From the NCBI RefSeq assembly GCF_963921235.1, contig NC_086097.1, positions 78,742,001 to 78,806,000 on the forward strand: 64,000 nucleotides of DNA. Reading direction: 5' to 3'. Made by a program: the position numbers and the translations under genes. The DNA comes from Mobula hypostoma. Taxonomy: Eukaryota. A model generated the notes under the pieces. That model had not been told where the DNA came from, ran no database searches, and saw nothing but the letters and a program-made list of their open reading frames with translations. Shown here one piece after another: positions 12,526 through 51,697 of the stretch. The stretch's first letter is position 1. Every line of letters starts with the position of its first letter.

Positions 12526-12858
12526 AGAAGTAAATCTACTCAGCTTTTGACACCTTTTAACAAGTGGTACATGCAGAACCTGCGAAATAATAGAAACAAT
12601 TGGGAAAATACAAGAGAGTTCTCTTCACTACTACCAATTTGAATACGGCGCAAAAGTTCTTGGAAAGTGTCCAGATTTGTGTTTATTTTCAATTTTCTAT
12701 TTTTCTTTGACTTATAAAGGTATATTGACCATACAGAACTATATAAAATCATAAGAGGCATACTGTAGATAAGGTGAATGGTCACTGTCTTTTACCCATG
12801 GTAGGGGAGGGTGAAACTAGAGACATAGACTTAAGGTGAGAGGGGAAAGGTTTAAAGG

Positions 12859-25519: not shown

Positions 25520-25678
25520 ATGAGCCCGGGCTGTCCAATTCCACCCTACTAACCTGTACATATTTGGAAAAGGGAAGGAAACTGGAGCACCCAGAGGAAA
25601 TCCATGCGGCTGTGGGACGAACATACAAACTCCTCATAGACAGCGGTGGAACTGAACTCATTTTGCTGGTGCTGTAAT
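25520..25678 (-). mobile_element. V-SINE-like element, host of the LTR array (continues at 28318-28345 and 54728-54755)
   Basis: GGAAACTGGAGCACCCAGAGGAAATCCA...CAAACTCC core; continuation AGCATT(T)ACGCTAACCGCTACG follows the TSD. Confidence 0.6.
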
Positions 25679-26900
25679 TGTCATGGTCCAGTCCGTGAAG
25701 ACCGTATTCCGCTTCACGGTCCGGTCCATCGACCCTTGCTCCAGGTTTTCCTATCTACCCTGTTTCTGTTCTTGTTGAGCTAATTGAGGCAGCTGATGCT
25801 CCTTGGGGCTGGCTGCATAAATACCTCCAGAGACCCAGGCATGGCTGCTGGATTGTTCTTGTCCTTACTGCTTGGATCCCTTGCTCTGCCTTCTGTTTCC
25901 TCGCCTGAAGCCCTGCCTTGTCTTGCCGGTAACTCTCGCCTCGCCTGAAGTTCTCATCTCGCCTCGCATTGCCTGAAGCTTTGCCTTGACTTGCTGGTAA
26001 CTCTCGCCTCGTCTCACCTGCAGTCTTGTCCCGGAGCCACCCTGTACCTAGCTCCCTTCCTGTCCCTTGCCTCCGTCGGGTAAGCCAGGCCGTCTCGCCA
26101 TTACAGGCAGTTGGTTCTGTCCCTTCCGATCCCATGCCTCCGTCAGGTGGTCATCCGCGCCCTGCCAGGTGAACCGTGCCCTGCCCCGGAGGAGCCTGTC
26201 TAGCCTCAAGCCTGAAGACTCCAACGTCACCTCGCCTCTAGTCTCCTGCCTCCAGCCTCCAGCCACGCCTCACCTCAAGTCTCCTGCCTCCAGCCTCCAG
26301 CCTTGCATCAAGACTCCAGCCTCCAGCCTCACCTCGCCTCGCCTCATCTCCTGCCTCCAGCCTCCTGCCTCGCCTCGCCTGAAGACTCCAGCCTCCTGCC
26401 TAGCCTCAAGCCTGAAGACTCCAGCCTCCTGCCTAGCCTCAAGCCTGAAGAGTCCAGCCTCTAGCCTCTAGCCTCTTGCCAAGCCAAGACAAGCATCTAG
26501 CCTCTAGCCTCTAGACTCAAACCTGAAGACTCCAGCCTCCTGCCTCCTGCCAAGCCTCACCTCTAACCTCAAGTCTGAAGACTCCAGCCTCCTGCTTCCT
26601 GCCAAGTTTTGCCTCTAGCCTCAGGCCTGAAGACTCCAGCCTCATCCTGCCTGCCTGCCAAGCCTCGTCCTTGCCAGGTTCTGGGGTCCGAGCTAGAGGC
26701 AAGACCCAGATACTGGGTCCTTGTACAGTCTCTGGCTCGGAATCTAAGCCCGGGCTCCTATCTCTCTTGTCCAGCCCTGTTCTAGGTTCCTGGTTTTCCT
26801 GTCCATGTCCTTGCCATCGCCCTGTATCCTAGTCCTGTCCCTAGTACTTCAGTGTCTGTGTCTTGTACTTGGGTCCATTCCCAGACACCGCCCTATAACA
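25679..26900 (+). mobile_element. LTR 1 of miniature non-autonomous Sushi/Tf1-type LTR element
   Basis: TGTCATGG...CCTATAACA termini; preceded by GTAAT; TATA-like CATAAATA at 25816; minisatellite interior; no CR1 insertion. Confidence 0.88.
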
Positions 26901-27061
26901 GAATGATCCAGCCAACCATGGACCCAGCGACACAGACACTGTCGTTTTCCTCTTGCCACCCGGGGTTCCTTTCTGTTACATACCCTCCCACCCGCCTGGG
27001 TCATCCATAGTCTGGATACCCTGTTTGGTTGCCAGGAAGTTCCCGTAGAGGAGGGGGTTAC
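26901..27061 (+). mobile_element. 161-bp internal region (PBS, gag-start remnant, polypurine tract)
   Basis: GAATGATCCAG right after the LTR; ATG GAC CCA GCG (MDPA); AGAGGAGGGGG just before the next TG. Confidence 0.85.
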
Positions 27062-28312
27062 TGTCATGGTCCGGTCCGTGAAGTCCGTATTCCGGTTCAC
27101 GGTCCGGTCCATTGACCCTTGCTCCAGGTTTTCCTATCTACCCTATTTCTGTTCTTGTTGAGCTAATTGAGGCAGCTGATGCTCGTTGGGACTGGCTGCA
27201 TAAATACCTTCACAGACCAGGGCGTGGCTGCTGGATTGTTCTTGTCCTTACTCCTTGTACCCCTTGCTCTGCCTTCTGTTTCCTGGTCTGAAGCCCTGCC
27301 TTGTGTTGCCAGTAGCTCTCGCCTCGCCTGAACTTCTCGTCTCGCCTTGCATTGCCTGAAGCCTTGCCTTGACTTGCTGGTAACTCTCGCTTCATCTTGC
27401 CTGCTGTCTTGTCCTGGAGCCACCCTGAACCTAGCTCGCTTCCTGTCCCTTGCCTCTGTCGGGTAAGCCAGGCCATCTCGCCATTACATGTGGTTGGTTC
27501 TGTCCCTTCCTGTCCCATGCCTCCGTCGGGTGGTGATCCGCGCCCTGCCCAGGTGATCCACGCTCTGCCCCGGAGGAGCCTGCCTAGACTCAAACCTAAA
27601 GACTCCAGCTTCACCTCGCTTCAAGTCTCCTGCCTCCAGCCTCCAGCCTCACCTCGCTTCAAGTCTCCTGCCTCCAGCCTTGCCTCAAGCCTCCAGCCTT
27701 CAGCCTCACCTTGCCTCAAGCCTCCAGCCTTCAGCCTCACCTCGCTTCAAGTCTCCTGCCTCCAGCCTCGCCTCGCCTGAAGACTCCAGCCTCCTGCCTC
27801 CTGCCAAGCCTCGCCTCTAGCCTCAAGCCAGAAGACTCAAGCCTCCTGCCTCCTGCCAAGCCTCGCCTCTAGCCTCAAGCCTGAAGACTCCAGCCTCACC
27901 CTGCCTGCCTTTCAAGCCTCGTGTTTGCCTGGTTCTGGGGTCCGAGCCAGAGGCAAGACCCAGGTACTGGGTCCTTGTGCAGTCTCTGGCTCGGAGTCCA
28001 TCCTGTCTCCTGCCAAGCCTCGCCTCTTAGCCTCAAGCCTGAAGACTCCAGATTCGTCCTGCCTGCCTGCCAAGCCTCGTCCTTGCCTGGTTCTGGGGTC
28101 CAAGCCAGAGGCAAGACCCAGCTACTGGGTCCTTGTCCGGTCTCTGGCTCAGAGTTCAAGCCCAGGCTCCTAGCTCCCTTGTCCAGTCCTGTTCCAGGTT
28201 CCTGGTTTTCCTGTCCATGTCCTTGCCATCGCCCTGTATCCTAGTCCTGTCCCTAGTACTTCAGTGTCTGTGTCTGGCACTTGGGTCCTTTCCCAGTCAC
28301 CGCCCTATGACA
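27062..28312 (+). mobile_element. LTR 2 of the miniature element
   Basis: TGTCATGG...CCTATGACA, followed by GTAAT matching 25674-25678; no CR1 insertion. Confidence 0.88.
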
Positions 28313-28825
28313 GTAATAGCATTTACGCTAACCGCTACGGTACAATGCTACCCTCTTTTCCTTTATTCTTTAGCTGCCAGTTTCTTTGCGAACTTTAATT
28401 TCTTCCTTTGGACCTGTATTGCCCTTCATAAAAAGTTTTTTTTAATAATGCAGCAATGTCATTTTTAGATAGTTTTTTTTGCAAGGAGATTGCAAGCTAC
28501 AGTGCGTAAAGTATATAATGGGATAATGTAAACCTATAATCTGAAGGAACAGAACATCTACCTGGGAGTCCACATCTCACACAACCTTTCATGGTCCCAG
28601 AACATATCCTTTGCAGTCAGGAAAGCCCACCGATACCTCTACTCTCTGAAGAGAACTGGACTTTGCATATTAATACTCTCGACCTCCTACAAATGCCAAG
28701 TTGAAAGCATCCTAACACTGTATGGCATGGAAACTGCACTGCTAATGGACAGGGCGGCCCAACATCAGGTAGTTAACACCACCCAATGCATCACCAACAC
28801 CAGCCTAATGGTCATCAAGGACAAA

Positions 28826-29395
28826 CACTCAGTGGCCACTTTATTAGATACGCCTGTACATCTGCCCGTTAATGCAAATATCTAATCAGCTTATCACATG
28901 GCAACAACCTAATGCATAAAAACATACAGATATGGTCAAGAGCTTCATTTGTTGTTCAGATCAAATGTCAGAATGGGGGGAAAATATGATTCCACTGACT
29001 TTGACAATGCAATGATTGTTGGAGACAGACGGGGTGGTTTCAGTATCTCAGAAATTGCCGAACTGCTGGGATTTCCACACACAACAGTCTCTGGAGTTTG
29101 CAGCGAATGCTGCAAAAAACACAGATACATCCAGTGAGCGGCAGTTCTGTTGGTAAAAATGCCTTGTTAACGAGAGAAATCAGAGGAGAATGGACAGACC
29201 GGTTGAAGCTGACACAAAGTTGACAGTAACTCAAGTAACCGCATATTACAATTGTAGTATGCAGAAGAGCATTTCTGAACACACAACACATCAGATCTTG
29301 AAGTGGATGGGCCACAGCAGCAGAAGATGGCAAACATACACTCAATGGCCTCTTGATTGGGTACAGAAAGTATTTAATAAAGTGGCCACTGAGTA
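28826..29395 (+). mobile_element. Internally deleted Tc1-like transposon
   Basis: TIRs CACTCAGTGGCCACTTTATTA / TAATAAAGTGGCCACTGAGTA; HTH remnant MIVGDRRGGFSISEIAELLGFPHTTVS. Confidence 0.85.
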
Positions 29396-32178: not shown

Positions 32179-33300
32179 CCTTGTCTTCACAGAAGAGAAG
32201 ACAAGTGAGGAAGCGAGCAAAGGATCAACTGAGGAAGCGAGCAAAGGAACGACAGAAGGAATTTAGACAAGTGTAAAGTGATGCACTTTCCAACATTTTA
32301 CACACAGGAATGGCAGGGCATGTTGTTGACTGAGGCAGCTTGGGGTACAAGTACATAGTTCCCCAGAAGGGCCAACACAGTCGACAAGGTGGTGACAAAA
32401 GCCTCGTGCCTCCAGCCTCGCCTCACCTCAGCTCTCCTGCCTCCAGCCTCCAGCCTCACCTAGCCTTAAGTCTCCTGCCTCCAGTCTCGCCTCGCCTCAA
32501 GTCTCCAGCCTCGCCTCACCTCAACTCTCCTGCCTCCAACCTCGCCTCGCCTGAAGACTCCAGCCTCCTGCCTAGCCTCAAGCCTGAAGACTCCAGCCTC
32601 CTGCCTAGCCTCTTGCCAAGCTGAGCCAAGCCTCTAGCCTCTAGCCTCAAGCCTCAAGCCTGAAGACTCCAGCCTCCTGCCTCCTGTCAAGCCTCACCTC
32701 TGGCCTCAAGCCTGCAGTTCTCATCTCGCCTTCCTGCCTCCTGTCAAGCCTCACCTCTGGCCTCAAGCCTGAAGTTCTCATCTCGCCTTGCATTGCCTGA
32801 AGCCTTGCCTTGACTGTATCCTAGTCCTGTCCCTAGTACTTCAGTGTCTGGGTCTTGCACTTGGGTCCATTCCCAGCCACCGCCCTATGACAGAACGATC
32901 CAGACAACCATGGACCCAGTGACACAGACACTGTTGCTTTCCTCTTGCGACCCGGGGTTCCTTTCTGTTACATACCTTCCCACCCACCCGGGTCGTCCAT
33001 ATTCTTGGGTACCCTGTTTGGTCGTCAGGAGGCTCCTGTAGAGGGGGGCGTACTGTCATGGTCCGGTCCGTCAACTCCGCATTCCGGTTCACGGTCCGGT
33101 CCATCGACCCTTGCTCCAGGTTTTCCTATCTACCCTGTTTCTGTTCTTGTCGAGCTAATTGAGGCAGCTGATGCTCTTTGGGGCTGGCTGCATAAATACC
33201 TGCATAAATAGCGTGGCTGCTGGATTGTTCTTGTCCTTACTCCTCGTAACCTTTGCTCTGTCTTTGGTTTCTGCCTTGCCTTGTCTTGCCGGTAACTCTC

Positions 33301-35294
33301 ATAGAAACATAGAAACATAGAAAATAGGTGCAGGAGTAGGCCATTCAACCCTTCGAGGCTGCACCGCCATTTATTATGATCATGGGTGATTATCCAACTC
33401 AGATCCCTGCCCCAGCCTTCCCTCCATACTCCCTGATCCCCGAAGCCACAAGGGCCATATCTAACTCCCTCTTAAATATAGCCAATGAACTGGCCTCAAC
33501 TGTTTCCTGTGGCAGAGAATTCCACAGATTCACCACTCTCTGTGTGAAGAAGTTTTTCCTCATCTCGGTCCGAAAAGGCTTCCCCTTTATCCTCAAACGG
33601 TGACCCCTCGTTCTGGACTTCCCAACATCGGGAACAATCTTCCTGCATCTAGCCTGTTCAATCCCTTTAGGATTTTATACGTTTCAATCAGATCCCCCCT
33701 CAATCTTCTGGATTCCAACGAGTACAAGCCCAGTTCATCCAGTCTTTCTTCATATAAAAGTCCTGCCATCCCAGGAATCAATCTGGTGAACCTTCTTTGT
33801 ACTCCCTCTATGGCAAGGATGTCTTTCCTCAGATTAGGGGACCAAAACTGCACACAATACTCCAGGTGTGGTCTCACCAAGGCCTTGTACAACTGCAGTA
33901 GTACCTCCCTGCTCCTGTACTCGAATCCTCTCGCTATAAATGCCAGCATACCATTCACCTTTTTCACCGCCTGCTGTACCTGCATGCCCACTTTCAATGA
34001 CTGGTGTATAATGACACCCAGGTCTCGTTGCACCTCCCCTTTTCCTAATCGGCCACCATTCAGATAATAATCTCTTTTCCTATTTTTGCCACCAAAGTGG
34101 ATAACTTCACATTTATCCACATTAAATTGCATCTGCCATGAATTTGCCCACTCACCCAACCTATCCAAGTCATTCTGCATCCTCTTAGCATCCTTCTCAC
34201 AGCTAACACTTCCACCCAGCTTCGTGTCATCCGCAAACTTGGAGATGCTGCATTTAATTCCCTCATCCAAGTCATTAATATACATTGTAAACATCTGGGG
34301 TCCCAGCACTGAGCCTTGCGCTACCCCACTAGTCACCGCCTGCCATTCTGAAAAGGTCCCGTTTATTCCCACTCTTTGCTTCCTGTCTGCTAACCAATTC
34401 TCTATCCACATCAATACCTTACCCCCAATACCGTGTGCTTTAAGTTTGCACACTAATCTCCTGCGTGGGACCTTGTCAAAAGCCTTTTGAAAATCCAAAT
34501 ACACCACATCCACTAGTTCTCCCCTATCCACTCTACTAGTTACATCCTCAAAAATTTCTATGGGATTCGTCGGACATGATTTTCCTTTCATAAATCCATG
34601 CTGACTTTGTCCAATGATTTCACCGCTTTCCAAATGTGCTGTTATCACATCTTTGATAACTGACTCCAGCAGTTTCCCCACCACCGACGTTAGGCTAACC
34701 GGTCTATAATTCCCCGGTTTCTTTCTCCCTCCTTTTTTAAACAGTGGGGTTACATTAGCCACCCTCCAATCCTCAGGAACTAGTCCAGAATCTAACGAGT
34801 TTTGAAAAATTATCACTAATGCATCCACTATTTCTTGGGTACTTCCTTAAGCTCTCTGGGATACAGACCATCTGGCCCTGGGGATTTATCTGCCTTCAAT
34901 CCCTTCAATTTACCTAACACCGCTTCCCTACTAACATGTATTTCGCTCAGTTCCTCCATCTCACTGGACCCTCTGTCCCCTACTATTTCTGGAAGATTAT
35001 TTATGTCCTCCTTAGTGAAGACAGAACCAAAGTAATTATTCAATTGGTCTGCCATGTCCTTGCTCCCCATAATCAATTCACCTGTTTCTGTCTGTAGGGG
35101 ACCTACATTTGTCTTTACCAGTCTTTTCCTTTTTACATATCTATAAAAGCTTTTACAGTCAGTTTTTATGTTCCCTGCCACTTTTCTCTCATCATCTTTT
35201 TTCCCCTTCCTACTTAAGCCCTTTGTCCTCCTCTGCTGAACTCTGAATTTCTCCCAGTGCTCAGGTGAGACACTTTTTCTGGCTAATATGTATG
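33301..35294 (-). mobile_element. 5'-truncated CR1 (RT only), unit 1
   Basis: ORFs 34828-35331, 33593-34828, 33399-33596; YLDFQKAFDKVP, QGSVLGP, KFADD; two frameshifts. Confidence 0.95.
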
Positions 35295-37470
35295 CTCTTG
35301 CCTTGCCTGAAGTTCTCATCTCGCATTGCATGGCCTGAAGCCTTGCCTTGACTTGCTGGTAATTCTCGTCTCGTCTCGCCTGCGGTCTTGTCCTGGAGCC
35401 ACCCTGTACCTAGCTCCCTTCCTGTCCATTGCCTCAGTCGGGTAAGCCAGGCCGTCTCGCCATTACCTGTGGTTGGTTCTGTCCCATGCCTCCGTCAGGT
35501 GGTGATCCGCGCCCTGCCCAGGAGTACGGCGTCCTGCCCAGGTGAACCGCGCCCTGCCCCGGAGGAGCCTGCCTAGCCTCAAGCCTCAAGTCTCCTGCCT
35601 CCAGCCTCGCCTTGTCTCCTGCCACCAGCCTCGCCTCAAATCTCCTGCCTCCAGCCTCACCTCGCCTCAAGTCTCCTGCCTCCAGCCTCGCCTCACCTCA
35701 GCTCTCCTGCCTCCAGCCTCCAGCCTCACCTAGCCTCCAGTCTCCTGCCTCCAGCCTCCAGCCTCACCTCGAATCAAGCCTCCAGCCTCCAGCCTCACCT
35801 CGCCTGAAGTCTCCTGCCTCCAGCCTCGTCTCGCCTGAAGACTCCAGCCTCCTGCCTAGCCTCAAGCCTGAAGACTCCAGCCTCGCCCTGCCTGCCTTTC
35901 AATCCTCGTGTTTGCCTGGTTCTGGGGTCCGAGCCAGAGGCAAGACCCAGGTACTGGGTCCTTGTCCAGTCTCTGGCTCGGAGTCCATCCTGCCTCCTGC
36001 CAAGCCTCGCCTCTAGCCTCAAGCCTGAAAACTCCAGCCTCCTGCTTCCTGCCAAGTCTCGCCTCTAGCCTCAGGCCTGAAGACTCCGGCCTCGTCCTAC
36101 CTGCCTGCCAAGGTTCATCCTGGCCTGGTCCTGGGGTCCGAGCCAGAGGCAAGACCCAGCTACTGGGTCCTTGTCCAGTCTCTGGCTCAGAGTTCAAGCC
36201 CAGGCTCCTAGCTCCCTTGTCCAGTCCTGTTCCAGGTTCCTGGTTTTCCTGTCCATGTCCCTGCCATCGTCCTGTATCCCAGTTCGGTCCCTAGTCCCTA
36301 GAGGCCTGTCCTCCAGCCTCGCCTCATCTCAAGTCTCCTTCCTCCAGCCTCACCTCACCTGAAGACTCCAGCCTCCTGCCTAGCCTCAAGCCTGAAGACT
36401 CCAGCCTCCTGCCTAGCCTCAAGCCTGAAGACTCCAGACTCCTACCTCGCCTCATGCCTGAAGACTCCAGACTCCTGCCTAGCCTCTTGCCAAGCCAAGC
36501 CAAGTCTCTGGCCTCTTGCCAAGCTGAGCCAAGCCTCTAGCCTCTAGCCTCTAGCCTCTAGCCTCAAGCCTCAAGCCTGAAGACTCCAGCCTCGCCCTGC
36601 CTGCCTTTCAAGCCTCGTGTTTGCCTGGTTCTGGGGTCCGAGCCAGAGGCAAGACCCAGGTACTGGGTCCTTGTTCAGTCTCTGGCTCGGAGTCCATCCT
36701 GCCTCCTGCCAAGCCTCGCCTCTAGCCTCAAGCCTGAAGACTCCAGCCTCGTCCTGCCTGCCTGCCAAGTCTCGCCTCTGGTCTCAGGACTGAAGACTCC
36801 AGCCTCGTCCTGCCTGCCTGCCAAGGTTCATCCTTGCCTGGTCCTGGGGTCCGAGCCAGAGGCAAGACCCAGCTCCTGGGTCCTTGTCCAGTCTCTGGCT
36901 CAGAGTTCAAGCCCAGGCTCCAAGCTCCCTTGTCCAGTCCTGTACCAGGTTCCTGGTTTTCCTGTCCATGTCCCTGCCATTGCCCTGTATCCTAGTCCTG
37001 TCTCTAGTACTTTAGTGTCTGTGTCTTGCACTTGGGTCCATTCCCAGCCACCGCCCTATGACAGAACGATCCAGACAACCATGGACCCAGTGACACAGAC
37101 ACTGTTGCTTTCCTCTTGCGACCCGGGGTTCCTTTCTGTTACATACCTTCCCACCCACCCGGGTCGTCCATATTCTGGGTACCCTGTTTGGTCGCCAGGA
37201 GGCTCCTGTAGAGGGGGGCATACTGTCATGGTCCGGTCCGTCAAGTCCGTATTGCGGTTCACGGTCCGGTCCAGCAACCCTTGCTCCAGGTTTTCCTATC
37301 TACCCTGTTTCTGTTCTTGTAGAGCTAATTGAGACAGCTGATGCTCTTTGTGGCTGGCTGCATAAATACCTGCATAAATAGCGTGGCTGCTGGATTGTTC
37401 TTGTCCTTACTCCTCGTAACCTTTGATCTGCCTTTTGTTTCTGCCTTGCCTTGTCTTGCCGGTAACTCTC

Positions 37471-39442
37471 ATAGAAACATAGTAGGCCATTCGGCCCTTC
37501 GAGCCTGCACAGCCATTTATTATGATCATGGCTGATCATCCACTCAGAACCCTGCCCCAGCCTTCCCTCCATACCCCCTGACCCCCGTAGCCACAAGGGC
37601 CATATCTAACTCCCTCTTAAATATAGCCAATGAACTGGCCTCAACTGTTTCCTGTGGCAGAGAATTCCACAGATTCACCACTCTCTGTGTGAAGAAGTTT
37701 TTCCTCATCTCAGTCCTAAAAGGCTTCCCCTTTATCCTCAAACTGTGACCCCTCGTTCTGGACTTCCCCAAAATCGCGAACAATCTTCCTGCATCTAGCC
37801 TGTCCAATCCCTTTAGGATTTTATACGTTTCAATCAGATCCCCCCCTCAATCTTCTAAATTCCAACGAGTACAAGCCAAGTTCATCCAGTCTTCCTTCAT
37901 ATGAAAGTCCTGCCATCCCAGGAATCAATCTGGTGAACGTTCTTTGTACTCCCTCTATGGGAAGGATGTCCTTCCTCAGATTAGGGGACCAAAACTGCAC
38001 ACAATACTCCAGGTGTGGTCTCACCAAGGCCTTGTACAACTGCAGTGGTACCTCCCTGCTCCTGTACTCGAATCCTCTCGCTTTAAATGCCAGCATACCA
38101 TTCACCTTTTTCACTGCCTGCTGTACCTGCATGCCCACTTTCAATGACTGGTGTATAATGACACCCAGGTCTTGTTGCACCTCCCCTTTTCCGAATCGGC
38201 CACCATTCAAGTAATAATCTCTTTTCCTATTTTTGCCACCAAAGTGGATAACTTCACATTTATCCACATTAAATTGCATCTGCCATGAATTTGCCCATTC
38301 ACCCAACCTATCCAAGTCACTCTGCATCCTCTTAGCATCCTCCTCACAGCTAACACTGCCACCCAGCTTCCTGTCATCCGCAAACTTGGAGATGCTGCAC
38401 TTAATTCCCTCATCCAAGTCATTAATACATATTGTAAACAACTGGGCTCCCAGCACTGAGCCTTGCGGTACCCCACTAGTCACCGCCTGCCATTTTGAAA
38501 AGGTCCCGTTTATTCCCACGCTTTGCTTCCTGTCTGCTAACCAATTCTCTATCCACATCAATACCTTACCCCCAATAACGTGTGCTTTAAGTTTGTACAC
38601 TAATCTCCTGTGTGGGAACTTGTCAACAGCCTTTTGAAAATCCAAATACACCACATCCACTAGTTCTCCCCTATCCACTCTACTAGTTACATCCTCAAAA
38701 AATTCTATGAGATTCGTCAGACATGATTTTCCTTTCACAAATCCATGCTGACTTTATCCGATCATTTCACCGCTTTCCAAATGTGCTGTTATCACATCTT
38801 TGATAACTGACTCCAGCAGTTTCCCCACCACCGACGTTAGGCTAACCGGTCTATAATTCCCTGGTTTCTTTCTCCCTCCTTTTTTAAAAAGTGGGGTTAC
38901 ATTAGCCACCCTCCAATCCTCAGGAACTAGTCCAGAATCTAACGAGTTTTGAAATATTATCACTAATGCATCCACTATTTCTTGGGCTACTTCCTTAAGC
39001 ACTCTGGGATGCAGACCATCTGGCCCTGGGGATTTATCTGCCTTCAATCCCTTCAATTTACCTAACACCACTTCCCTACTAACATGTATTTCGCTCAGTT
39101 CCTCCATCTCACTGGACCCTCTGTCCCCTACTATTTCTGGAAGATTATTTATGTCCTCCTTAGTGAAGACAGAACCAAAGTAGTTATTCAATTGGTCTGC
39201 CATGTCCTTGCTCCCCATAATCAATTCACCTGTTTCTGTCTGTAGGGGACCTACATTTGTCTTTACCAGTCCTTTCCTTTTTACATATCTATAAAAGCTT
39301 TTACAGTCAGTTTTTATGTTCCCTGCCAGTTTTCTCTCCACATCTTTTTTCCCCTTCCTAATTAAGCCCTTTGTCCTCCTCTGCTGAACTCTGAATTTCT
39401 CCCAGTGCTCAGGTGAGACACTTTTCCTGGCTAATTTGTATG
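37471..39442 (-). mobile_element. 5'-truncated CR1 (RT only), unit 2
   Basis: Same junctions as unit 1; nonsense codon at 38754, frameshift near 37845, shortened tail. Confidence 0.95.
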
Positions 39443-41010
39443 TTCTCGCTTCGCCTGAAGTTCTCATCTCGCCTTGCATTGCCTGAAACCTTGCCTTGAC
39501 TTGGTGGTAATTGTCATCTCGTCTCGCCTGCAGTCTTGTCCTGGAGCCACCCTGTGCCTAGCACCCTTCCTGTCCATTGCCTCCGTCGGGTAAGCCAGCT
39601 GTCTCGCCATTACCTGTGGTTGGTTCTGTCCCTTCCTGTCCCATGCCTCCGTCAGGTGGTGATCCGCGCCCTGCCCAGGAGTACGGCGTCCTGCCCAGGT
39701 GAACCGCGCCCTGCCCCAGAGGAGCCTGCCGAGCCTCAAGCCTCGTCTCAAGTCTCCTGGCTCCAGCCTCGCCTCACCTCAAGTCTCCAGCCTCCAGCCT
39801 CCAGCCTCGCCTCACCTCAACTCTCCTGCCTCCAGCTTCCAGCCTCACCTGGCCTCAAGTCTCCTGCCTCCAGCCTCGCCTCAAGCCTCCAGCCTCCAGC
39901 CTCACATCGCATCAAGCCTCCAGCCTCGAGTCTCACCTCGCCTCAAGTCTCCTGCCTCCAGCCTCGCCTCGCCTGAAACTTCAGCCTCCTGCCTAGCCTC
40001 AAGCCTGAAGACTCCAGCCTCCTGCCTAGCCTCTTGCCAAGCCAAGCCAAGTCTCTAGCCTCTTGCCAAGCTGAGACAAGCCTCTAGCCTCTAGCCTCTT
40101 GCCTCAAGCCTCAAGCCTGAAGACTCCAGCCTCGCCCTGCCTGCCTTTCAAGCATCGTGTTTGCCTGGTTCTGGGGTCCGAGCCAGAGGCAAGACCCAGG
40201 TACTGGGTCCTTGTTCAGTCTCTGGCTCGGAGTCCATCCTGCCTCCTGCCAAGCCTCGCCTCAAACCTCAAGCCTGAAGACTCCAGCCTCGTCCTGCCTG
40301 CCTGCCAAGTCTCGCCTCTGGCCTCAGGACTGAAGATTCCAGTCTCGTCCTGCCTGCCTGCCAAGGTTCATCCTTGCCTGGTCCTGGGGTCCGAGCCAGA
40401 GGCAAGACCCAGCTCCTGGGTCCTTGTCCAGTCTCTGGCTCAGAGTTCAAGCCCAGGCTCCTAGCTCCCTTGTCCAGTCCTGTTCCAGGTTCCTGGTTTT
40501 CCTGTCCATGTCCCTGCCATTGCCCTGTATCCAAGTCCTGTCTCTAGTACTTTAGTGTCTGTGTCTTGCACTTGGGTCCATTCCCAGCCACCGCCCTATG
40601 ACAGAACGATCCAGACAACCATGGACCCAGTGACACAGACACTGTTGCTTTCCTCTTGCCACCCAGGGTTCCTTTCTGTTACATACCTTCCCACACACCC
40701 GGGTCGTCCATATTCTGGGTACCCTGTTTGGTCGCCAGGAGGCTCCTGTAGAGGGGGGTGTACTGTCATGGTCCAGTCCGTCAAGTCCGTATTGCGGTTC
40801 ACGGTCCGGTCCAGCAACCCTTGCTCCAGGTTTTCCTATCTACCCTGTTTCTGTTCTTGTCGAGCTAATTGAGGCAGCTGATGCTCTTTGGGGCTGGCTG
40901 CATAAATACCTGCATAAATAGCGTGGCTGCTGGATTGTTCTTGTCCTTACTCCTCGTAACCTTTGATCTGCCTTTTGTTTCTGCCTTGCCTTGTCTTGCC
41001 GGTAACTCTC

Positions 41011-42999
41011 ATAGAAACATAGAAACATAGAAAATAGGTGCAAGAGTAGGCCATTCGGCCCTTCGAGCCTGCACCGCCATTTATTATGATCATGGCTGAT
41101 CATCCAACTCAGAACCCTGCCCCAGCCTTCCCTCCATACTCACTGATCCCCGTAGCCACAAGGGCCATATCTAACTCCCTCTTAAATATAGCCAATGAAC
41201 TGGCCTCAACTGTTTCCTGTGGCAGAGAATTCCACAGATTCACCACTCTCTGTGTGAAGAAGTTTTTCCTCATCTCGGTCCTAAAAGGCTTCCCCTTTAT
41301 CCTCAAACTGTGACCCCTCGTTCTGGACTTCCCCAAAATCGCGAACCATCTTCCTGCATCTAGCCTGTCCAATCCCTTTAGGATTTTATACGTTTCAATC
41401 AGATCCCCCCTCAATCGTCTAAATTCCAACGAGTACAAGCCAAGTTCATCCAGTCTTCCTTCATATAAAAGTCCTGCCATCCCAGGAATCAATCTGGTGA
41501 ACGTTCTCTGTACTCCCTCTATGGGAAGGATGTCCTTCCTCAGATTAGGGGGCCAAAACTGCACACAATACTCCAGGTGTGGTCTCACCAAGGCCTTGTA
41601 CAACTGCAGTGGTACCTCCCTGCTCCTGTACTCGAATCCTCTCGCTTTAAATGCCAGCATACCATTCACCTTTTTCACTGCCTGCTGTACCTGCATGCCC
41701 ACTTTCAATGACTGGTGTATAATGACACCCAGGTCTCGTTGCACCTCCCCTTTTCCTAATCGGCCACCATTCAAATAATAATCTCTTTTCCTATTTTTGC
41801 CACCAAAGTGGATAACTTCACATTTATCCACATTAAATTGCATCTGCCATGAATTTGCCCACTCACCCAACCTATCCAAGTCACTCTGCATCCTCTTAGC
41901 ATCCTCCTCACAGCTAACACTGCCACCCAGCTTCCTGTCATCCGCAAACTTGGAGATGCTGCACTTAATTCCCTCATCCAAGTCATTAATATATATTGTA
42001 AACAACTGGGCTCCCAGCACTGAGCCTTGCGGTACCCCACTAGTCACCGCCTGCCATTTTGAAAAGGTCCCGTTTATTCCCACGCTTTGCTTCCTGTCTG
42101 CTAACCAATTCTCTATCCACATCAATACCTTACCCCCAATAACGTGTGCTTTAAGTTTGTACACTAATCTCCTGTGTGGGAACTTGTCAACAGCCTTCTG
42201 AAAATCCAAATACACCACATCCACTAGTTCTCCTCTATCCATTCTACTAGTTACATGCTCAAAAAATTCTATGAGATTCGTCAGACATGATTTTCCTTTC
42301 ACAAATCCATGCTGACTTTGTCCGATGATTTCACCGCTTTCCAAATGTGCTGTTATCACATCTTTGATAACTGACTCCAGCAGTTTCCCCACCACCGACG
42401 TTAGGCTAACCGGTCTATAATTCCCTGGTTTCTTTCTCCCTCCTTTTTTAAAAAATGGGGTTACATTAGCCACCCTCCAATCCTCAGGAACTAGTCCAGA
42501 ATCTAACGAGTTTTGAAATATTATCACTAATGCATCCACTATTTCTTGGGCTACTTCCTTAAGCACTCTGGGATGCAGACCATCTGGCCCTGGGGATTTA
42601 TCTGCCTTCAATCCCTTCAATTTACCTAACACCACTTCCCTACTAACATGTATTTCGCTCAGTTCCTCCATCTCACTGGACCCTCTGTCCCCTACTATTT
42701 CTGGAAGATAATTTATGTCCTCCTTAGTGAACCAAAGTAATTATTCAATTGGTCTGCCATGTCCATGCTCCCCATAATCAATTCACCTGTTTCTGTCTGT
42801 AGGGGACCTACATTTGTCTTTACCAGTCCTTTCCTTTTTACATATCTATAAAAGCTTTTACAGTCAGTTTTTATGTTCCCTGCCAGTTTTCTCTCCACAT
42901 CTTTTTTCCCCTTCCTAATTAAGCCCTTTGTCCTCCTCTGCTGAACTCTGAATTTCTCCCAGTGCTCAGGTGAGACACTTTTCCTGGCTAATTTGTATG
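41011..42999 (-). mobile_element. 5'-truncated CR1, unit 3; RT frame open for 520 aa (41109-42671) to the natural stop
   Basis: Full RT motif set including FADD; small frameshifting deletion near 42730. Confidence 0.95.
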
Positions 43000-44617
43000 T
43001 TCTCGCTTCGCCTGAAGTTCTCATCTCGCCTTGCATTGCCTGAAGCCTTGCTTTGACTTGGTGGTAATTGTCATCTCGTCTTGCCTGCAGTCTTGTCCTG
43101 GAGCCACCCTGTACCTAGCACCCTTCCTGTCCATTGCCTCCGTCGGGTAAGCCAGCCGTCTCGCCATTACCTGTGGTTGATTCTGTCCCTTCCTGTCCCA
43201 TGCCTCCGTCAGGTGGTGATCCGCGCCCTGCCCAGGAGTACGGCGTCCTGCCCAGGTGAACCGCGCCCTGCCCCGGAGGAGCCTGCCTAGCCTCAAGCCT
43301 CGTCTCAAGTCTCCTGCCTGCAGCCTCGCCTCGCCTCAAGTCTCCTGCCTCCAGCCTCGCCTCACCTCAAGTCTCCAGCCTCCAGCCTCCAGCCTCGCCT
43401 CACCTCAACTCTCCTGCCTCCAGCTTCCAGCCTCACCTGGCCTCAAGTCTCCTGCCTCCAGCCTCGCCTCAAGCCTCCAGCCTCACTTAAGCCTCCAGCC
43501 TCCAAACTCACATCGCATCAAGCCTCCAGCATCCAGCCTCACCTCGCCTCAAGTCTCCTGCCTCCAGCCTCGCCTCGCCTGAAGACTTCAGCCTCCTGCC
43601 GAGCCTCAAGCCTGAAGACTCCAGCCTCCTGCCTAGCCTCTTGCCAAGCCAAGCCAAGTCTCTAGCCTCTTGCCAAGCTGAGACAAGCCTCTAGCCTCTA
43701 GCCTCTAGCCTCAAGCCTCAAGCCTGAAGACTCCAGCCTCGCCCTGCCTGCCTTTCAAGCCTCGTGTTTGCCTGGTTCTGGGGTCCGAGCTAGAGGCAAG
43801 ACCCAGGTACTGGGTCCTTGTTCAGTCTCTGGCTCGGAGTCCATCCTGCCTCCTGCCAAGCCTCGCCTCAAACCTCAAGCCTGAAGACTCCAGCCTCATC
43901 CTGCCTGCCTGCCAAGTCTCGCCTCTAGCCTCAGGACTGAAGACTCCAGCCTCGTCCTGCCTGCCTGCCAAGGTTCATCCTTGCCTGGTCCTGGGGTCCG
44001 AGCCAGAGGTAAGACCCAGCTCCTGGGTCCTTGTCCAGTCTCTGGCTCAGAGTTCAAGCCCAGGCTCCTAGCTCCCTTGTCCAGTCCTGTTCCAGGTTCC
44101 TGGTTTTCCTGTCCATGTCCCTGCCATTGCCCTGTATCCTCGTCCTGTCTCTCGTACTTCAGTGTCTGTGTCTTGCACTTGGGTCCATTCTCAGCCACCG
44201 CCCTATGACAGAACGATCCAGACAACCATAGACCCAGTGACACAGACACTGTTGCTTTCCTCTTGCCACCTGGGGTTCCTTTCTGTTACATACCTTTCCA
44301 CACACCCGGGTCGTCCATATTCTGGGTACCCTGTTTGGTCGCCAGGAGGCTCCTGTAGAGGGGGGCGTACTGTCATGGTCCGGTCCGTCAAGTCCGTATT
44401 GCGGTTCACGGTCCGGTCCAGCAACCCTTGCTCCAGGTTTTCCTATCTACCCTGTTTCTGTTCTTGTCGAGCTAATTGAGGCAGCTGATGCTCTTTGGGG
44501 CTGGCTGCATAAATACCTGCATAAATAGCGTGGCTGCTGGATTGTTCTTGTCCTTACTCCTTGTAACCTTTGCTCTGCCTTTCGTTTCTGCCTTACCTTG
44601 TCTTGCCGGTAACTCTC

Positions 44618-46606
44618 ATAGAAACATAGAAACATAGAAAATAGGTGCAGGAGTAGGCCATTCAGCCCTTCGAGCCTGCACAGCCATTTATTATGATCAT
44701 GGCTGATCATCCAACTCAGAACCCTGCCCCAGCCTTCCCTCCATACCCACTGATCCCCGTAGCCACAAGGGCCATATCTAACTCCCTCTTAAATATAGCC
44801 AATGAACTGGCCTCAACTGTTCCCTGTGGCAGAGAATTCCGCAGATTCACCACTCTCTGTGTGAAGAAGTTTATCCTCATCTCGGTCCTAAAAGGCTTCC
44901 CCTTTATCCTCAAACTGTGACCCCTCGTTCTGGACTTCCCCAAAATCGCGAACAATCTTCCTGCATCTAGCCTGTCCAATCCCTTTAGGATTTTATACGT
45001 TTCAATCAGATCCCCCCCTCAATCTTCTAAATTCCAACGAGTACAAGCCAAGTTCATCCAGTCTTCCTTCATATGAAAGTCCTGTCATCCCAGGAATCAA
45101 TCTGGTGAACGTTCTTTGTACTCCCTCTGATGTCCTTCCTCAGATTAGGGGACCAAAACTGCACACCATACTCCAGGTGTGGTCTCACTAAGGCCTTGTA
45201 CAACTGCAGTGGTACCTCCCTGCTCCTGTACTCGAATCCTCTCGCTTTAAATGCCAGCATACCATTCACCTTTTTCACTGCCTGCTGTACCTGCATGCCC
45301 ACTTTCAATGACTGGTACATAATGACACCCAGGTCTCGTTGCACCTCCCCTTTTCCTAATCGGCCACCATTCAGATAATAATCTCTTTTCCTATTTTTGC
45401 CACCAAAGTGGATAACTTCACATTTATCCACATTAAATTGCATCTGCCATGAATTTGTCCACTCACCCAACCTATCCAAGTCACTCTGCATCCTCTTAGC
45501 ATCCTCCTCACAGCTAACACTGCCACCCAGCTTCGTGTCATCCGCAAACTTGGAGATGCTGCATTTAATTCCCTCATCCAAGTCATTAATATATATTGTA
45601 AACAACTGGGGTCCCAGCACTGAGCCTTGCGGTACCCCACTAGTCACCGCCTGCCATTTTGAAAATGTCCCGTTTATTCCCACGCTTTGCTTCCTGTCTG
45701 CTAACCAATTCTCTATCCACATCAATACCCTACCCCCAATAACGTGTGCTTTAAGTTTGTACACTAATGTCCTGTGTGGGAACTTGTCAACAGCCTTTTG
45801 AAAATCCAAATACACCACATCCACTAGTTCTCCCCTATCCATTCTACTAGTTACATCCTCAAAAAATTCTATGAGATTCGTCAGACATGATTTTCCTTTC
45901 ACAAATCCATGCTGACTTTGTCCGATCATTTCACCGCTTTCCAAATGTGCTGTTATCACATCTTTGATAACTGACTCCAGCAGTTTCCCCACCACCGACG
46001 TTAGGCTAACCGGTCTATAATTCCCCGGTTTCTTTCTCCCTCCTTTTTTAAAAAGTGGGGTTACATTAGCCACCCTCCAATCCTCAGGAACTAGTCCAGA
46101 ATCTAATGAGTTTTGAAAAATTATCACTAATGCATCCACTATTTCTTGGGCTACTTCCTTAAGCACTCTGGGATGCAGACCATCTGACCCTGGGGATTTA
46201 TCTGCCTTCAATCCCTTCAATTCACCTAACACCGCTTCCCTACTAACATGTATTTCGCTCAGTTCCTCCATCTCACTGGACCCTCTGTCCCCTACTATTT
46301 CTGGAAGATTATTTATGTCCTCCTTTGTGAAGACAGAACCAAAGTAATTATTCAATTGGTCTGCCATGTCCATGCTCCCCATAATCAATTCACCTGTTTC
46401 TGTCTGTAGGGGACCTACATTTGTCTTTACCAGTCTTTTCCTTTTTACATATCTATAAAAGCTTTTACAGTCAGTTTTTATGTTCCCTGCCAGTTTTCTC
46501 TCTACATCTTTTTTCCCCTTCCTAATTAAGCCCTTTGTCCTCCTCTGCTGAACTCTGAATTTCTCCAAGTGCTCAGGTGAGACACTTTTCCTGGCTAATT
46601 TGTATG
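44618..46606 (-). mobile_element. 5'-truncated CR1, unit 4; 524-aa frame from the LTR-derived ATG (45069-46643)
   Basis: Open from MQGEMRT through the RT core; frameshifting deletion near 45128. Confidence 0.95.
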
Positions 46607-48054
46607 TCCTCGCTTCGCCTGAAGTTCTCATCTCGCCTTGCATTGCCTGAAGCCTTGCCTTGACTTGGTGGTAATTCTCATCTCGTCTTGCCTGCAGTCT
46701 TGTCCTGGAGCCACCCTGTACCTAACACCCTTGCTGTCCATTGCCTCCGTCGGGTAAGCCAGCCGTCTCGCCATTACCTGTGGTTGGTTCTGTCCCTTCC
46801 TGTCCCATGCCTCCGTCAGGTGGTGATCCGCGCCCTGCCCAGGAGTACGGCGTCCTGCCCAGGTGAACCGCGCCCTGCCCCGGAGGAGCCTGCCTAGCCT
46901 CAAGCCTCGTCTCAAGTCTCCTGCCTCCAGCCTCGCCTCGCCTCAAGTCTCCAGCTTCCAGCCTCCAGCCTCGCCTCACCTCAACTCTCCTGCCTCCAGC
47001 CTCCAGCCTCACCTCGCCTCAAGTCTCCTGCCTCCAGCCTCGTCTCGCCTGAAGACTTCAGCCTCCTGCCTAGCCTCTTTCCAAGCCAAGCCAAGTCTCT
47101 AGCCTCTTGCCAAGCTGAGACAAGCCTCTAGCCTCTAGCCTCTAGCCTCAAGCCTCAAGCCTGAAGACTCCAGCCTCGCCCTGCCTGCCTTTCAAGCCTC
47201 GTGTTTGCCTGGTTCTGGGGTCGGAGCCAGAGGCAAGACCCAGGTACTGGGTCCTTGTTCAGTCTCTGGCTCGGAGTCCATCCTGCCTCCTGCCAAGCCT
47301 CGCCTCTAGCCTCAAGCTTGAAGACTCCAGCCTCGTCCTGCCTGCCTGCCAAGTCTCGCCTCTAGCCTCAGGACTGAAGACTCCAGCCTCGTCCTGCCTG
47401 CCTGCCAAGGTTCATCCTTGCCTGGTCCTGGGGTCCGAGCCAGAGGCAAGACCCAGCTCCTGGGTCCTTGTCCAGTCTCTGGCTCAGAGTTCAAGCCCAG
47501 GCTCCTAGCTCCCTTGTCCAGTCCTGTACCAGGTTCCTGGTTTTCCTGTCCATGCCCCTGCCATTGCCCTGTATCCTAGTCCTGTCTCTAGTACTTTAGT
47601 GTCTGTGTCTTGCACTTGGGTCCATTCCCAGCCACCGCCCTATGACAGAATAATCCAGACAACCATGGACCCAGTGACACAGACACTGTTGCTTTCCTCT
47701 TGCCACCCGGGGTTCCTTTCTGTTACATACCTTCCCACCCACCCGGGTCGTCCATATTCTGGGTACCCTGTTTTGTCGCCAGGAGGCTCCTGTAGAGGGG
47801 GGCGTACTGTCATGGTCCGGTCCGTTAACTCCGCATTCCGGTTCACGGTCCGGTCCATCGACCCTTGCTCCAGGTTTTCCTATCTACCCTGTTTCTGTTC
47901 TTGTAGAGCTAATTGAGGCAGCTGATGCTCTTTGGGGCTGGCTGCATAAATATCTGCATAAATGGCGTGGCTGCTGGATTGTTCTTGTCCTTACTCCTCG
48001 TAACCTTTGATCTGCCTTTTGTTTCTGCCTTGCCTTGTCTTGCCGGTAACTCTC

Positions 48055-50045
48055 ATAGAAACATAGAAACATAGAAAATAGGTGCAGGAGTAGGCCATTC
48101 GGCCCTTCGAGCCTGCACCGCCATTTATTATGATCATGGCTGATCATCCAACTCAGAACCCTGCCCCAGCCTTCCCTCCATATCCCCTGATCCCCGTAGC
48201 CACAAGGGCCATATCTAACTCCATCTTAAATATAGCCAATGAACTGGCCTCAACTGTTTCCTGTGGCAGAGAATTCCACAGATTCACCACTCTCTGTGTG
48301 AAGAAGTTTTTCCTCATCTCGGTCCTAAAAGGCTTCCCCTTTATCCTCAAACTGTGACCCCTCGTTCTGGACTTCCCCAACATCAGGAACAATCTTCCTG
48401 CATCTAGCCTGTCCAATCCCTTTAGGATTTTATACGTTTCAATCAGATCCCCCCTCAATCTTCTAAATTCCAACGAGTACAAGCCCAGTTCATCCAGTAT
48501 TTCTTCATATGAAAGTCCTGCCATCCCAGGAATCAATCTGGTAAACCTTCTTTGTACTCCCTCTATGGCAAGGATGTCTTTCCTCAGATTCGGGGACCAA
48601 AACTGCACACAATACTCCAGGTGTGGTCTCACCAAGGCCTTGTACAACTGCAGTAGTACCTTCCCTGCTCCTGTACTCGAATCCGCTCGCTAGAAATGCC
48701 AGCATACCATTCACCTTTTTCACCGCCTGCTGTACCTGCATGCCCACTTTCAATGACTGGTGTCTAATGACACCTGGGTCTCGTTGCACCTCCCCTTTTC
48801 CTAATCGGCCACCATTCAGATAATAATCTCTTTTCCTATTTTTGCCACTAAAGTGGATAACTTCACATTTATCCACATTAAATTGCTATGAATTTGCCCA
48901 CTCACCCAACTTATCCAAGTCACTCTGCATCCTCTTAGCATCCTCCTCACAGCTAACACTGCCACCCAGCTTCGTGTCATCCGCAAACTTGGAGATGCTG
49001 CATTTAATTCCCTCATCCAAGTCATTAATATATATTGTAAACAACTGGGGTCCCAGCACTGAGCCTTGCGGTACCCCACTAGTCACCGCCTGCCATTTTG
49101 AAAAGGTCCCATTTATTCCCACTCTTTGCTTCCTGTCTGCTAACCAATTCTCTATCCACATCAATACCTTACCCCCAATAACGTGTGCTTTAAGTTTGCA
49201 CACGAATCTCCTGTGTGGGACCTTGTCAACAGCCTTTTGAAAATCCAAATACACCACATCCACTAGTTCTCCCCTATCCACTCTACTAGTTACATCCTCA
49301 AAAAATTCTATGAGAGTCGTCAGACATGATTTTCCTTTCACAAATCCATGCTGACTTTGTCCGATCATTTCACCGCTTTCCAAATGTGCTGTTATCACAT
49401 CTTTGATAACTGACTCCAGCAGTTTCTCCACCACCGACGTTAGGCTAACCGGTCTATAATTCCCCGGTTTCTTTCTCCCTCCTTTTTTAAAAAGTGGGGT
49501 TACATTAGCCACCCTCCAATCCTCAGGAACTAGTCCAGAATCTAATGAGTTTTGAAAAATTATCACTAATGCATCCACTATTTCTTGGGCTACTTCCTTA
49601 AGCACTCTGGGATGCAGACCATCTGGCCCTGGGGATTTATCTGCCTTCAATCCCTTCAATTCACCTAACACCGCTTCCCTACTAACATGTATTTCGCTCA
49701 GTTCCTCCATCTCACTGGACCCTCTGTCCCCTACTATTTCTGGAAGATTATTTATGTCCTCCTTAGTGAAGACAGAACCAAAGTAATTATTCAATTGGTC
49801 TGCCATGTCCTTGCTCCCCATAATCAATTCACCTGTTTCTGTCTGTAGGGGACCTACATTTGTCTTTACCAGTCTTTTCCTTTTTACATATCTATAAAAG
49901 CTTTTACAGTCAGTTTTTATGTTCCCTGCCAGTTTTCTCTCCACATCTTTTTTCCCCTTCCTAATTAAGCCCTTTGTCCTCCTCTGCTGAACTCTGAATT
50001 TCTCCCAGTGCTCAGGTGAGACACTTTTCCTGGCTAATTTGTATG
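48055..50045 (-). mobile_element. 5'-truncated CR1 (RT only), unit 5
   Basis: ORFs 48886-50082, 48505-48876, 48153-48647. Confidence 0.95.
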
Positions 50046-51697
50046 TTCTCGCTTCGCCTGAAGTTCTCATCTCGCCTTGCATTGCCTGAAGCCTTGCCTT
50101 GACTTGGTGGTAATTGTCATCTCATCTCGCCTGCAGTCTTGTCCTGGAGCCACCCTGTACCTAGCACCCTTCCTGTCCATTGCCTCCGTCGGGTAAGCCA
50201 GCCGTCTCGCCGTTACCTGTGGTTGGTTCTGTCCCTTCCTGTCCCATGCCTCCGTCAGGTGGTGCTCCGCGCCCTGCCCAGGAGTACGGCGTCCTGCCCA
50301 GATGAATCGCGCCCTGCCCCGGAGGAGCCTGCCTAGCCTCAAGTCTCAAGTCTCAAGTCTCCTGCCTCCAGCCTCGCCTCGCCTCATCTCCTGCCTCCAG
50401 CCTAGGCTCGCCTCAAGTCTCCAGCCTCCAGCCTCCAGCCTCGCCTCACCTCAACTCTCCTGCCTCCAGCCTCCAGCCTCACCTGGCCTCAAGTCTCCTG
50501 CCTCCAGCCTCGCCTCAAGTCTCCAGCCTCCAGCCTCACATCGCATCAAGCCTCCAGCCTCCAGCCTCACCTCACCTCAAGTCTCCTGCCTCCAGCCTCG
50601 CCTCGCCTGAAGACTTCAGCCTCCTGCCTAGCCTCAAGCCTGAAGACTCCAGCCTCCTGCCTAGCCTCTTGCCAAGCCAAGCCAAGTCTCTAGCCTCTTG
50701 CCAAGCTGAGACAAGCCTCTAGCCTCTAGCCTCTAGCCTCAAGCCTCAAGCCTGAAAACTCAAGCCTCCTGCCTCCTGCCAAGCCTCGCCTCTAGCCTCA
50801 AGCCTGAAGACTCCAGCCTCGCCCTGCCTGCCTTTCAAGCCTCGTGTTTGCCTGGTTCTGGGGTCGGAGCCAGAGGCAACACCCAGGTACTGGGTCCTTG
50901 TTCAGTCTCTGGCTCGGAGTCCATCCTGCCTCCTGCCAAGCCTCGCCTCTAGCCTCAAGCCTGAAGACTCCAGCCTCGTCCTGCCTGCCTGCCAAGTCTC
51001 GCCTCTAGCCTCAGGACTGAAGACTCCAGCCTCGTCCTGCCTGCCTGCCAAGGTTCATCCTTGCCTGGTCCTGGGGTCCGAGCCAGAGGCAAGACCCAGC
51101 TCATGGGTCCTCGTCCAGTCTCTGGCTCAGAGTTCAAGCCCAGGCTCCTAGCTCCCTTGTCCAGTCCTGTACCAGGTTCCTGGTTTTCCTGTCCATGTCC
51201 CTGCCATTGCCCTGTATCCTAGTCCTGTCTCTAGTACTTCAGTGTCTGTGTCTTGCACTTGGGTCTATTCCCAGCCACCGCCCTATGACAGAACGATCCA
51301 GACAACCATGGACCCAGTGACACAGACACTGTTGCTTTCCTCTTGCCACCCGGGGTTCCTTTCTGTTACATACCTTCCCACCCACCCAGGTCGTCCATAT
51401 TCTGGGTACCCTGTTTGGTCGCCAGGAGGCTCCTGTAGAGGGGGGCGTACTGTCATGGTCCGGTCCGTCAAGTCCGTATTGCGGTTCACGGTCCGGTCCA
51501 GCAACCCTTGCTCCAGGATTTCCTATCTACCCTGTTTCTGTTCTTGTAGAGCTAATTGAGGCAGCTGATGCTCTTTGGGGCTGGCTGCATAAATACCTGC
51601 ATAAATAGCGTGGCTGCTGGATTGTTCTTGTCCTTACTCCTCGTAACCTTTGATCTGCCTTTTGTTTCTGCCTTCCCTTGTCTTGCCGGTAACTTTC

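Follow-up and report, generated by a model that had tools for sequence, protein, structure and literature searches.

A non-coding LTR element of Mobula hypostoma with a probable self-primer of the Tf1/sushi type

The window, that is, the whole 64,000-nt stretch of Mobula hypostoma DNA analysed here, contains at 25679-28312 a non-coding LTR element, hereafter the mini element. Its primer-binding site (PBS) pairs with the predicted 5' end of its own RNA. Since the families of this genome keep the pairing and its spacing with different letters, self-priming of the Tf1/sushi type is considered very likely. We hold with high confidence that the feature is real and works like the self-priming of Tf1. 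The mini element is related to chromodomain-bearing Ty3/gypsy families of the same genome; because it has no reverse transcriptase (RT) of its own, it is placed in the Tf1/sushi group only through its ends.

Architecture of the window copy

The element is 2634 bp in total, with an interior of 161 nt. The features, all on the forward strand (+), are as follows.

25674..25678, +, left target-site duplication GTAAT; the same 5 nt stand at 28313-28317
25679..26900, +, 5' LTR, TG...CA, 1222 nt; ~8% divergence from the 3' LTR in the end regions that were compared
25816..25823, +, TATA-like box CATAAATA of putative function; an AT-rich hexamer stands at like spacing in other families
25847..25858, +, predicted RNA 5' end and self-primer; 12-bp duplex with the PBS, -16.8 kcal/mol
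25860..25863, +, TGTC, predicted partner of the LTR end, which would lengthen the primer helix
26846..26879, +, U5 arm of a predicted stem looping out the PBS; 26 predicted pairs with 26917-26946, -38.9 kcal/mol
26901..26912, +, PBS, without TGG; 26905 is the G/A dimorphic site
26917..26946, +, post-PBS stem arm, left over from the first gag codons; an ATG at 26918 opens a frame that ends after 30 codons
27000..27061, +, what is left of the pol 3' end and of the polypurine tract (PPT), with AGAGGAGGGGG at 27047-27057
27062..28312, +, 3' LTR, 1251 nt; own TATA-like box at 27199 and leader copy at 27231
28313..28317, +, right target-site duplication GTAAT, equal to the left one
32400..54722, +, a second copy, amplified in tandem as six ~3.5-kb units

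The middle of the 5' LTR is enlarged by degenerate 7-nt repeats (~26195-26666). The predicted +1 is G25847, at a pyrimidine-purine step. A start near this position would give an R plus U5 of ~1050 nt, including the variable repeat block. As for a poly(A) signal, neither AATAAA nor ATTAAA was found in the window LTR.

The PBS starts with GAATGATCCAG at 26901-26911, directly behind the LTR end CA at 26900. The leader CTGGATTGTTC at 25848-25858 forms with it an 11-nt duplex of nine Watson-Crick and two G-U pairs. It is the sole fully pairing 11-mer in the 1222-nt LTR, and none of 1000 dinucleotide-shuffled LTRs held any. The motifs named in the earlier note, made from the sequence alone, were all found where it placed them. 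The 11-nt complementarity that it described is real, but its extent was understated: G25847 also pairs with C26912, so that the duplex of the window copy is 12 bp. The leader had been put ~30 nt past CATAAATA, which is roughly right; the exact distance is 32 nt from the first base of the box. The lack of a TGG start, seen in the window, extends to 81 of 81 unbiased pattern matches genome-wide. Opposite TGTC, the LTR ends with GACA in 107 of 108 copies and with AACA in the window copy.

Covariation of the leader and the PBS

Relatives were gathered from the same genome by a DUF4939 search and by PBS patterns. Five gag-bearing families (A, B, C, E, and F) and a second mini family (D) were found. 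The leader and the PBS covary over the seven families, with the AT-rich box ~31-32 nt upstream; the comparison of PBS and leader proposed in the earlier note thus came out in favor of self-priming. The nine-pair cores (CTGGATTGT in the mini family, CCAGTTCGT in A and E, CCAGATTGT in B, CCAGATCGT in C, CTAGATCGT in D, and CTCAATCGT in F) vary between families at five positions, and pairing is kept. When one real copy per family was compared, each leader paired best with its own PBS type in seven of seven rows; in this comparison A and E share the PBS, the margin of D is 0.3 kcal/mol, and the PBS of F comes from a second copy. At the level of sequence, this cross-family covariation is solid support for self-priming.

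The leader could be placed in 22/27 A, 22/30 B, 24/30 C, and 39/40 E loci; when 60 further gag loci were examined, the search pattern detected no PBS in 26 of them. The AT-rich box mostly lies 31-32 nt before the leader in A, C, and E, and 32-34 nt in B. A G precedes the leader in nearly all located copies (100/104 mini, 22/22 A, 22/22 B, 20/24 C, and 37/39 E), and a C stands directly behind the PBS in six of the seven copies compared, one per family. Leader positions 10 and 11 are often mismatched outside the mini family. Therefore, the conserved duplex consists of G plus nine nucleotides.

Priming by a host RNA, such as a tRNA half, a small RNA, or an rRNA fragment, would reduce the LTR match to a relic or to a helix with a structural role. 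In copia-type elements, priming by half-tRNAs without TGG is known (passages of PMC6317226 and PMC10886601), and the tRNA set compared here was small: 30 loci gave only tRNA-Lys(TTT) as normal-length genes, together with two implausible long-intron calls. Against this explanation, six different PBS cores each match their own LTR leader, the letter at PBS position 5 follows the leader letter within family E, and tRNA-Lys(TTT) pairs with the PBS over at most 5 nt. Priming by a host RNA is therefore regarded as very improbable.

Predicted RNA structure

The stem between U5 and the region behind the PBS is predicted in all seven families (-22.6 to -36.2 kcal/mol), and a short helix is predicted between the bases behind the leader and the LTR end. 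By energy, the U5 stem is not family-specific: the own partner was best in three of seven rows. When 14 full leader-to-PBS RNAs were folded as nested structures, the leader-PBS pairing probability was at least 0.57 in seven of them and 0.02 for the window copy. The low values arise because the U5 stem competes; both helices together would form a pseudoknot, which is beyond a nested-folding program.

The mini family

In a junction search, the genome yielded 5480 candidates at first look, and 40 of them were scored. The exact pattern recovers at least 105 PBS-bearing copies. Of 109 fetched copies, 108 entered the alignment; L129 was excluded because it could not be aligned. The interiors are mostly 158-178 nt, and the LTRs are 547-1874 bp with a median of 1122 bp (167 LTRs). 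The family is old, because the LTR pairs of its copies differ by a median of 6-8%. Among the 72 copies with both ends called, the 5-bp target duplication is exact in 36 and has at most one mismatch in 48. The mini copies are old, integrase-made insertions.

The commonest PBS, found in 49 of 108 copies and absent from the window, is the perfect complement GAACAATCCAG. The leader hardly varies: 100 of 103 copies have T at its position 7. Compensation within the family was not seen: L104, L145, L152, and L157 share a leader change in both LTRs, and the corresponding PBS change is absent from all four. Leader and PBS changes that match each other occur in a single copy, L144, of which only one LTR was read. 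Tandem mini copies of the form LTR-interior-LTR-interior occur at L008, L007/L014, L028, and L148.

If the pairing were a dead relic of an autonomous ancestor, the mini copies would have spread by DNA duplication or recombination. The window array was indeed made by tandem duplication, and tandem dimers occur elsewhere. But dispersed copies on many contigs have their own 5-bp duplications, half of them exact as given above. In addition, the leader/PBS pair of the mini family differs from that of the nearest gag-pol relatives at two paired positions, which means that pairing was kept after the split from them. The distinct target-site duplications largely refute this explanation, to which we give hardly any credence.

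The tandem array in the window

Each array unit consists of an LTR tail, an interior, an LTR head, and a 2-kb antisense piece of an RT-bearing LINE. The PBS reads GAACGATCCAG at 32893, 37064, 40604, 44211, and 51291, and GAATAATCCAG at 47648. All six units have A at the position of C26912 of the first copy, which breaks the G-C pair. The array interiors are 95.6-98.7% alike mutually and 85.6-88.7% alike when compared with copy 1. This means that the seven PBS copies in the window represent two insertions only. The earlier note had argued from the fact that all three window variants still pair through wobble; the pairing itself is seen, but with two insertions it does not serve as evidence. The TG and TA variants in the window are best read as CpG decay, with no evidence of selection.

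The LTR heads of the array (33191-33220 and the other units) carry CATAAATA twice, 29 and 17 nt upstream of the leader. A flank of 3.9 kb is duplicated at 28313-32420 and 54723-58697 with 97% identity. The final LTR tail of the array agrees to 99% with the 3' LTR tail of copy 1, while the array interior is that of another copy; therefore, the array has a recombinant end.

Other frames of the window lie on the reverse strand. An RT frame followed by a GIY-YIG frame at 10814-12624 (-) has a layout that we take to be Penelope-like. The frame at 61897-62736 (-) has a SCAN domain and a zinc knuckle and probably represents the gag of a different gypsy-type element. At 18022-18558 (-) there is a Spin-doc zinc-finger match that stays below the cut-off, and at 4491-5078 (-) a further RT fragment.

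Gag-bearing relatives and the candidate partner

Copies of family C contain Gag, protease, RT, RNase H, and integrase domains. The gag-pol relatives show DUF4939/Ty3 capsid features and also a Tf2-type SH3 domain, and PEG10 was the only match of their Gag among solved structures; the nearest solved structure to the RT is that of Ty3. The chromodomain PF00385 was above the cut-off in three of four frames, those of L064, L078, and L081 and not that of L083; its carriers are two family C copies and one family B copy.

In the mini interior, the first gag codons are fused to the pol end and the PPT. Between the mini copy L026 and the family C copy L078, 74 of 92 aligned bases match over the U5 end, the PBS, and the gag start. 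In the remnant of the pol end and PPT, 52 of 63 bases match, with a score of 70, compared with 43.5 at most for shuffled sequences. No gag-pol family is nearer to the mini 3' end than family C, which is also one of the nearest at the 5' end; family C has another leader/PBS pair, and its LTR body is not alignable to the mini LTR. From these sequence matches, family C is a candidate partner and not a proven parent.

Searches with the PBS plus an in-frame gag start did not find a gag-pol element with the exact leader/PBS pair of the mini family. They returned other families, mini copies, and the gag-start loci L062/L150 and L063/L151. These loci were rejected as partners: L150 has the family C leader, and L063 gave no leader. 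The Sushi-type partner suggested in the earlier note fits the chromodomain and the PEG10-like Gag of the relatives, but the exact partner was not found.

Family D (L066, L067, L056-L059, and L381-L390) is non-coding, with long LTRs, its own matched leader/PBS pair, tandem arrays with a period of ~1450-1550 nt, and ends close to those of the mini family. In L065 (~300-1480), a mini LTR in antisense orientation interrupts the 5' LTR of a gag-pol element of family C; it sits between the leader and the PBS of that element.

The G/A dimorphism of the PBS

PBS positions 4-5 read CG in 39, CA in 56, TG in 10, TA in 1, and other letters in 2 of the 108 copies. When a pattern with N across the PBS was used, 81 copies gave a similar picture by hand count (CG 28, CA 43, TG 7, TA 1, other 2). 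At 24 control CpGs, decay is symmetric, with 460 CA and 413 TG, against which the PBS ratio of 56:10 stands out (Fisher p 1.4e-7). Three skewed CpGs (26783/26784, 26791, and 26818/26819) were excluded from the controls as lineage markers. CpG decay, proposed earlier as a sufficient source of the PBS variants, accounts for TG and TA, but the excess of CA rejects it as the sole source. From the control CpGs, the share of copies born with PBS A is estimated at 0.42 (range 0.30-0.53). PBS A is the perfect match to leader T.

The excess of A is found only where the leader has T. In family C, in which the leader has C, the PBS is CA in 13 and TG in 18 of 82 copies (hand count), and the symmetry in leader-C families excludes general G-to-A editing of the PBS. 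Family A has 2 CA and 6 TG in 27 copies (hand count). It was considered as a leader-T family without conversion; this was rejected, since its leader is a decaying CpG (TG 9, CG 7, and CA 3 among the exact matches), and it serves as a control. In the leader-T family B, PBS A is present in 75 of 77 copies. The 10 matches of family D, in four places, are too few for PBS counts.

Family E gave 62 matches. The 40 that were fetched comprise all 38 of one subtype, picked for its A excess (12 CA versus 2 TG), and two others. A fixed leader T had been predicted beforehand for this subtype, and the prediction held only after a post hoc split by U5 sequence into E1 and E2. Lineage E1 has a decaying CpG leader and PBS A in 3 of 26 copies (CA 3, TG 2), while E2 has T in 13 of 13 clearly located leaders and PBS A in 12 of 14 copies (p 6e-6). 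The PBS letter thus tracks the leader letter, for which the only explanation that we see is a working leader-PBS pair.

Inheritance of the primer or selection of source copies

A large fraction of the daughter insertions may have received a copy of the self-primer in their PBS; judged from the sequences, the chances for and against this are balanced. Alternatively, self-priming holds, but the G/A split reflects separate G and A source copies, and nothing is copied from the primer: repeated CpG decay would make A sources, and selection would favor a perfect match to the T leader. The probability of this alternative is considerable, if short of even.

Primer inheritance is favored over source selection because the PBS state shows almost no lineage signal. 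Its best linkage has an r2 of 0.10, compared with 0.5-0.9 for lineage markers, and markers flanking the PBS have kept their mutual linkage (68/7/1/24), which speaks against separate sources. On the tree, the PBS state required 31 changes, versus 35.4 ± 2.7 after shuffling, and 17 of 300 shuffles were as low. Each of nine lineage markers on the same tree had 0 of 300 shuffles as low, and two decay sites had 0 and 51 of 300. CpG changes that arose in source copies (the three skewed sites excluded above) show a clear tree signal, with 13-21 changes and 0 of 300 shuffles; the PBS site does not. Pairs of copies with two or more rare variants in common, each present in both LTRs, differ at the PBS in 35 of 70 cases, which is the random rate, although these pairs are not independent and some rare variants may be alignment noise. 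Two common T/C polymorphisms, at 27210 and 27296, are only weakly linked to other markers (r2 0.20 and 0.16), with tree signal present.

Several observations point toward source copies. On an earlier tree, built after the removal of two more columns, the PBS state took 27 changes, without shuffles. All five larger haplotype groups still hold G copies, although the G sources would be expected to run out soon if 40% changed one way in every cycle. One group is rich in A (23 of 30; p 0.001-0.008 against its markers), and this is a sign that some A was inherited from source copies. The leader-T gradient of 42%, 86%, and 97% A is also expected from selection. Furthermore, mismatches at PBS positions 1-2 were not overwritten: none of 82 copies of family C starts with C, none of 27 in family A has GG, and 3 of 77 in family B have GC. 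Therefore, the primer either ends before these positions or is not inherited; inheritance requires a primer of ~10 nt counted from G.

Retroviruses copy their tRNA primer into the PBS of the plus strand. Ty1 and Ty3 differ from retroviruses in that they do not inherit primer sequence, according to passages of PMC5371799, which fits the reading of separate sources. In Tf1, about half of the cDNA has a DNA copy of the primer at its 3' end (PMC11042837, in part), so that the RT of Tf1 does copy its self-primer. The literature searched gave no report on self-primer inheritance either way; Atwood-Moore 2006 and Butler 2001 may cover it.

If the self-primer is inherited, the leader and the PBS would coevolve by built-in correction, without waiting for compensatory mutations. 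The lineage-free G/A split would then be a genomic record of primer inheritance and sequence-only evidence that vertebrate sushi-type elements self-prime, in contrast to Ty1 and Ty3.

Proposed mechanism

RNA polymerase II would start at or near G25847, and the first 10-12 nt of the RNA would pair with the PBS, held in a loop by the U5/post-PBS stem. The role of the first gag codons as an arm of this stem would explain why they are exactly retained. The RT/RNase H of the partner would cut the leader off, as in Tf1, and extend it into minus-strand DNA; the partner integrase would make the 5-bp duplication. Plus-strand strong-stop DNA might also be copied through the primer, bringing the letter of the primer into the PBS, a step that we regard as a toss-up. 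Such copying would convert the G-U wobble to A-U in roughly 40% of new insertions. As the element indicates, the complete priming structure can persist in a non-coding parasite that has lost all else.

Comparison with known systems

Self-priming defines the Tf1/sushi group (passages of PMC6317226, PMC4600332, PMC5341516, and PMC7175516). It was shown experimentally for fission-yeast Tf1 and only proposed for vertebrate sushi-type elements, as far as the relevant passages of PMC6317226, 10.1101/2022.12.06.519325, and PMC4600332 go. The first two of these sources refer to Butler 2001 for the proposal. The compensatory evidence from seven families adds to this proposal. The mechanism of self-priming is thus of a known kind, and the PBS dimorphism is the new, testable part. 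The dimorphism sharpens the question of whether a self-primer is inherited, and the same count is possible in any vertebrate assembly. A vertebrate non-autonomous self-priming element was not found in the literature searched, the scope of which lay outside subscription papers and Repbase; Butler 2001 and Atwood-Moore 2006 may cover it, and the length of the primer as well. The Troyka paper says nothing about priming.

Among vertebrate Tf1/sushi elements (sushi-ichi, GyDB V-clade chromoviruses, and PEG10/RTL relatives), the chromodomain and a PEG10-like Gag are shared with the relatives described here. Sushi LTRs have a TATA-like stretch and AATAAA near the 3' end (PMC3601003, in part); compared with these, the mini LTR has the TATA-like box but neither AATAAA nor ATTAAA.

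TRIMs measure less than 1000 bp, with terminal repeats of 100-250 bp and usually a tRNA PBS (passages of PMC10886601 and PMC6934838). Like Cassandra, Helenus, Ajax, and biv-TRIM, the mini element is non-coding, with a short interior holding the PBS and PPT, a 5-bp duplication, and tandem arrays. Its tandem copies resemble Cassandra arrays and also integrase-independent Tf1 insertion. Unlike TRIMs, it is 2634 bp long, with a median LTR of 1122 bp and a self-complementary PBS. The term TRIM-like, used in the earlier note, therefore suits the layout (non-coding LTR-PBS-PPT-LTR with a target duplication) and not the size.

The closest parallel is with Tf1 and Tf2 of Schizosaccharomyces pombe, and with Tj1, Tosmo1-3, and Tcry1, in which the PBS lies directly behind the LTR and is complementary to the predicted RNA 5' end. 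Two flanking helices of the 'pretzel' type, as described for these elements, are also predicted here. A three-duplex structure is described for Tf1/sushi RNAs (10.1101/2022.12.06.519325, in part), and the three helices predicted here, each singly, match it. Tf1 is autonomous and its priming was shown by experiment, whereas the mini element is non-coding and known from sequence alone. It further differs from Tf1 in its LTR of 1.2 kb, in the distance of ~1 kb between primer and PBS, and in a conserved core of G plus nine nucleotides.
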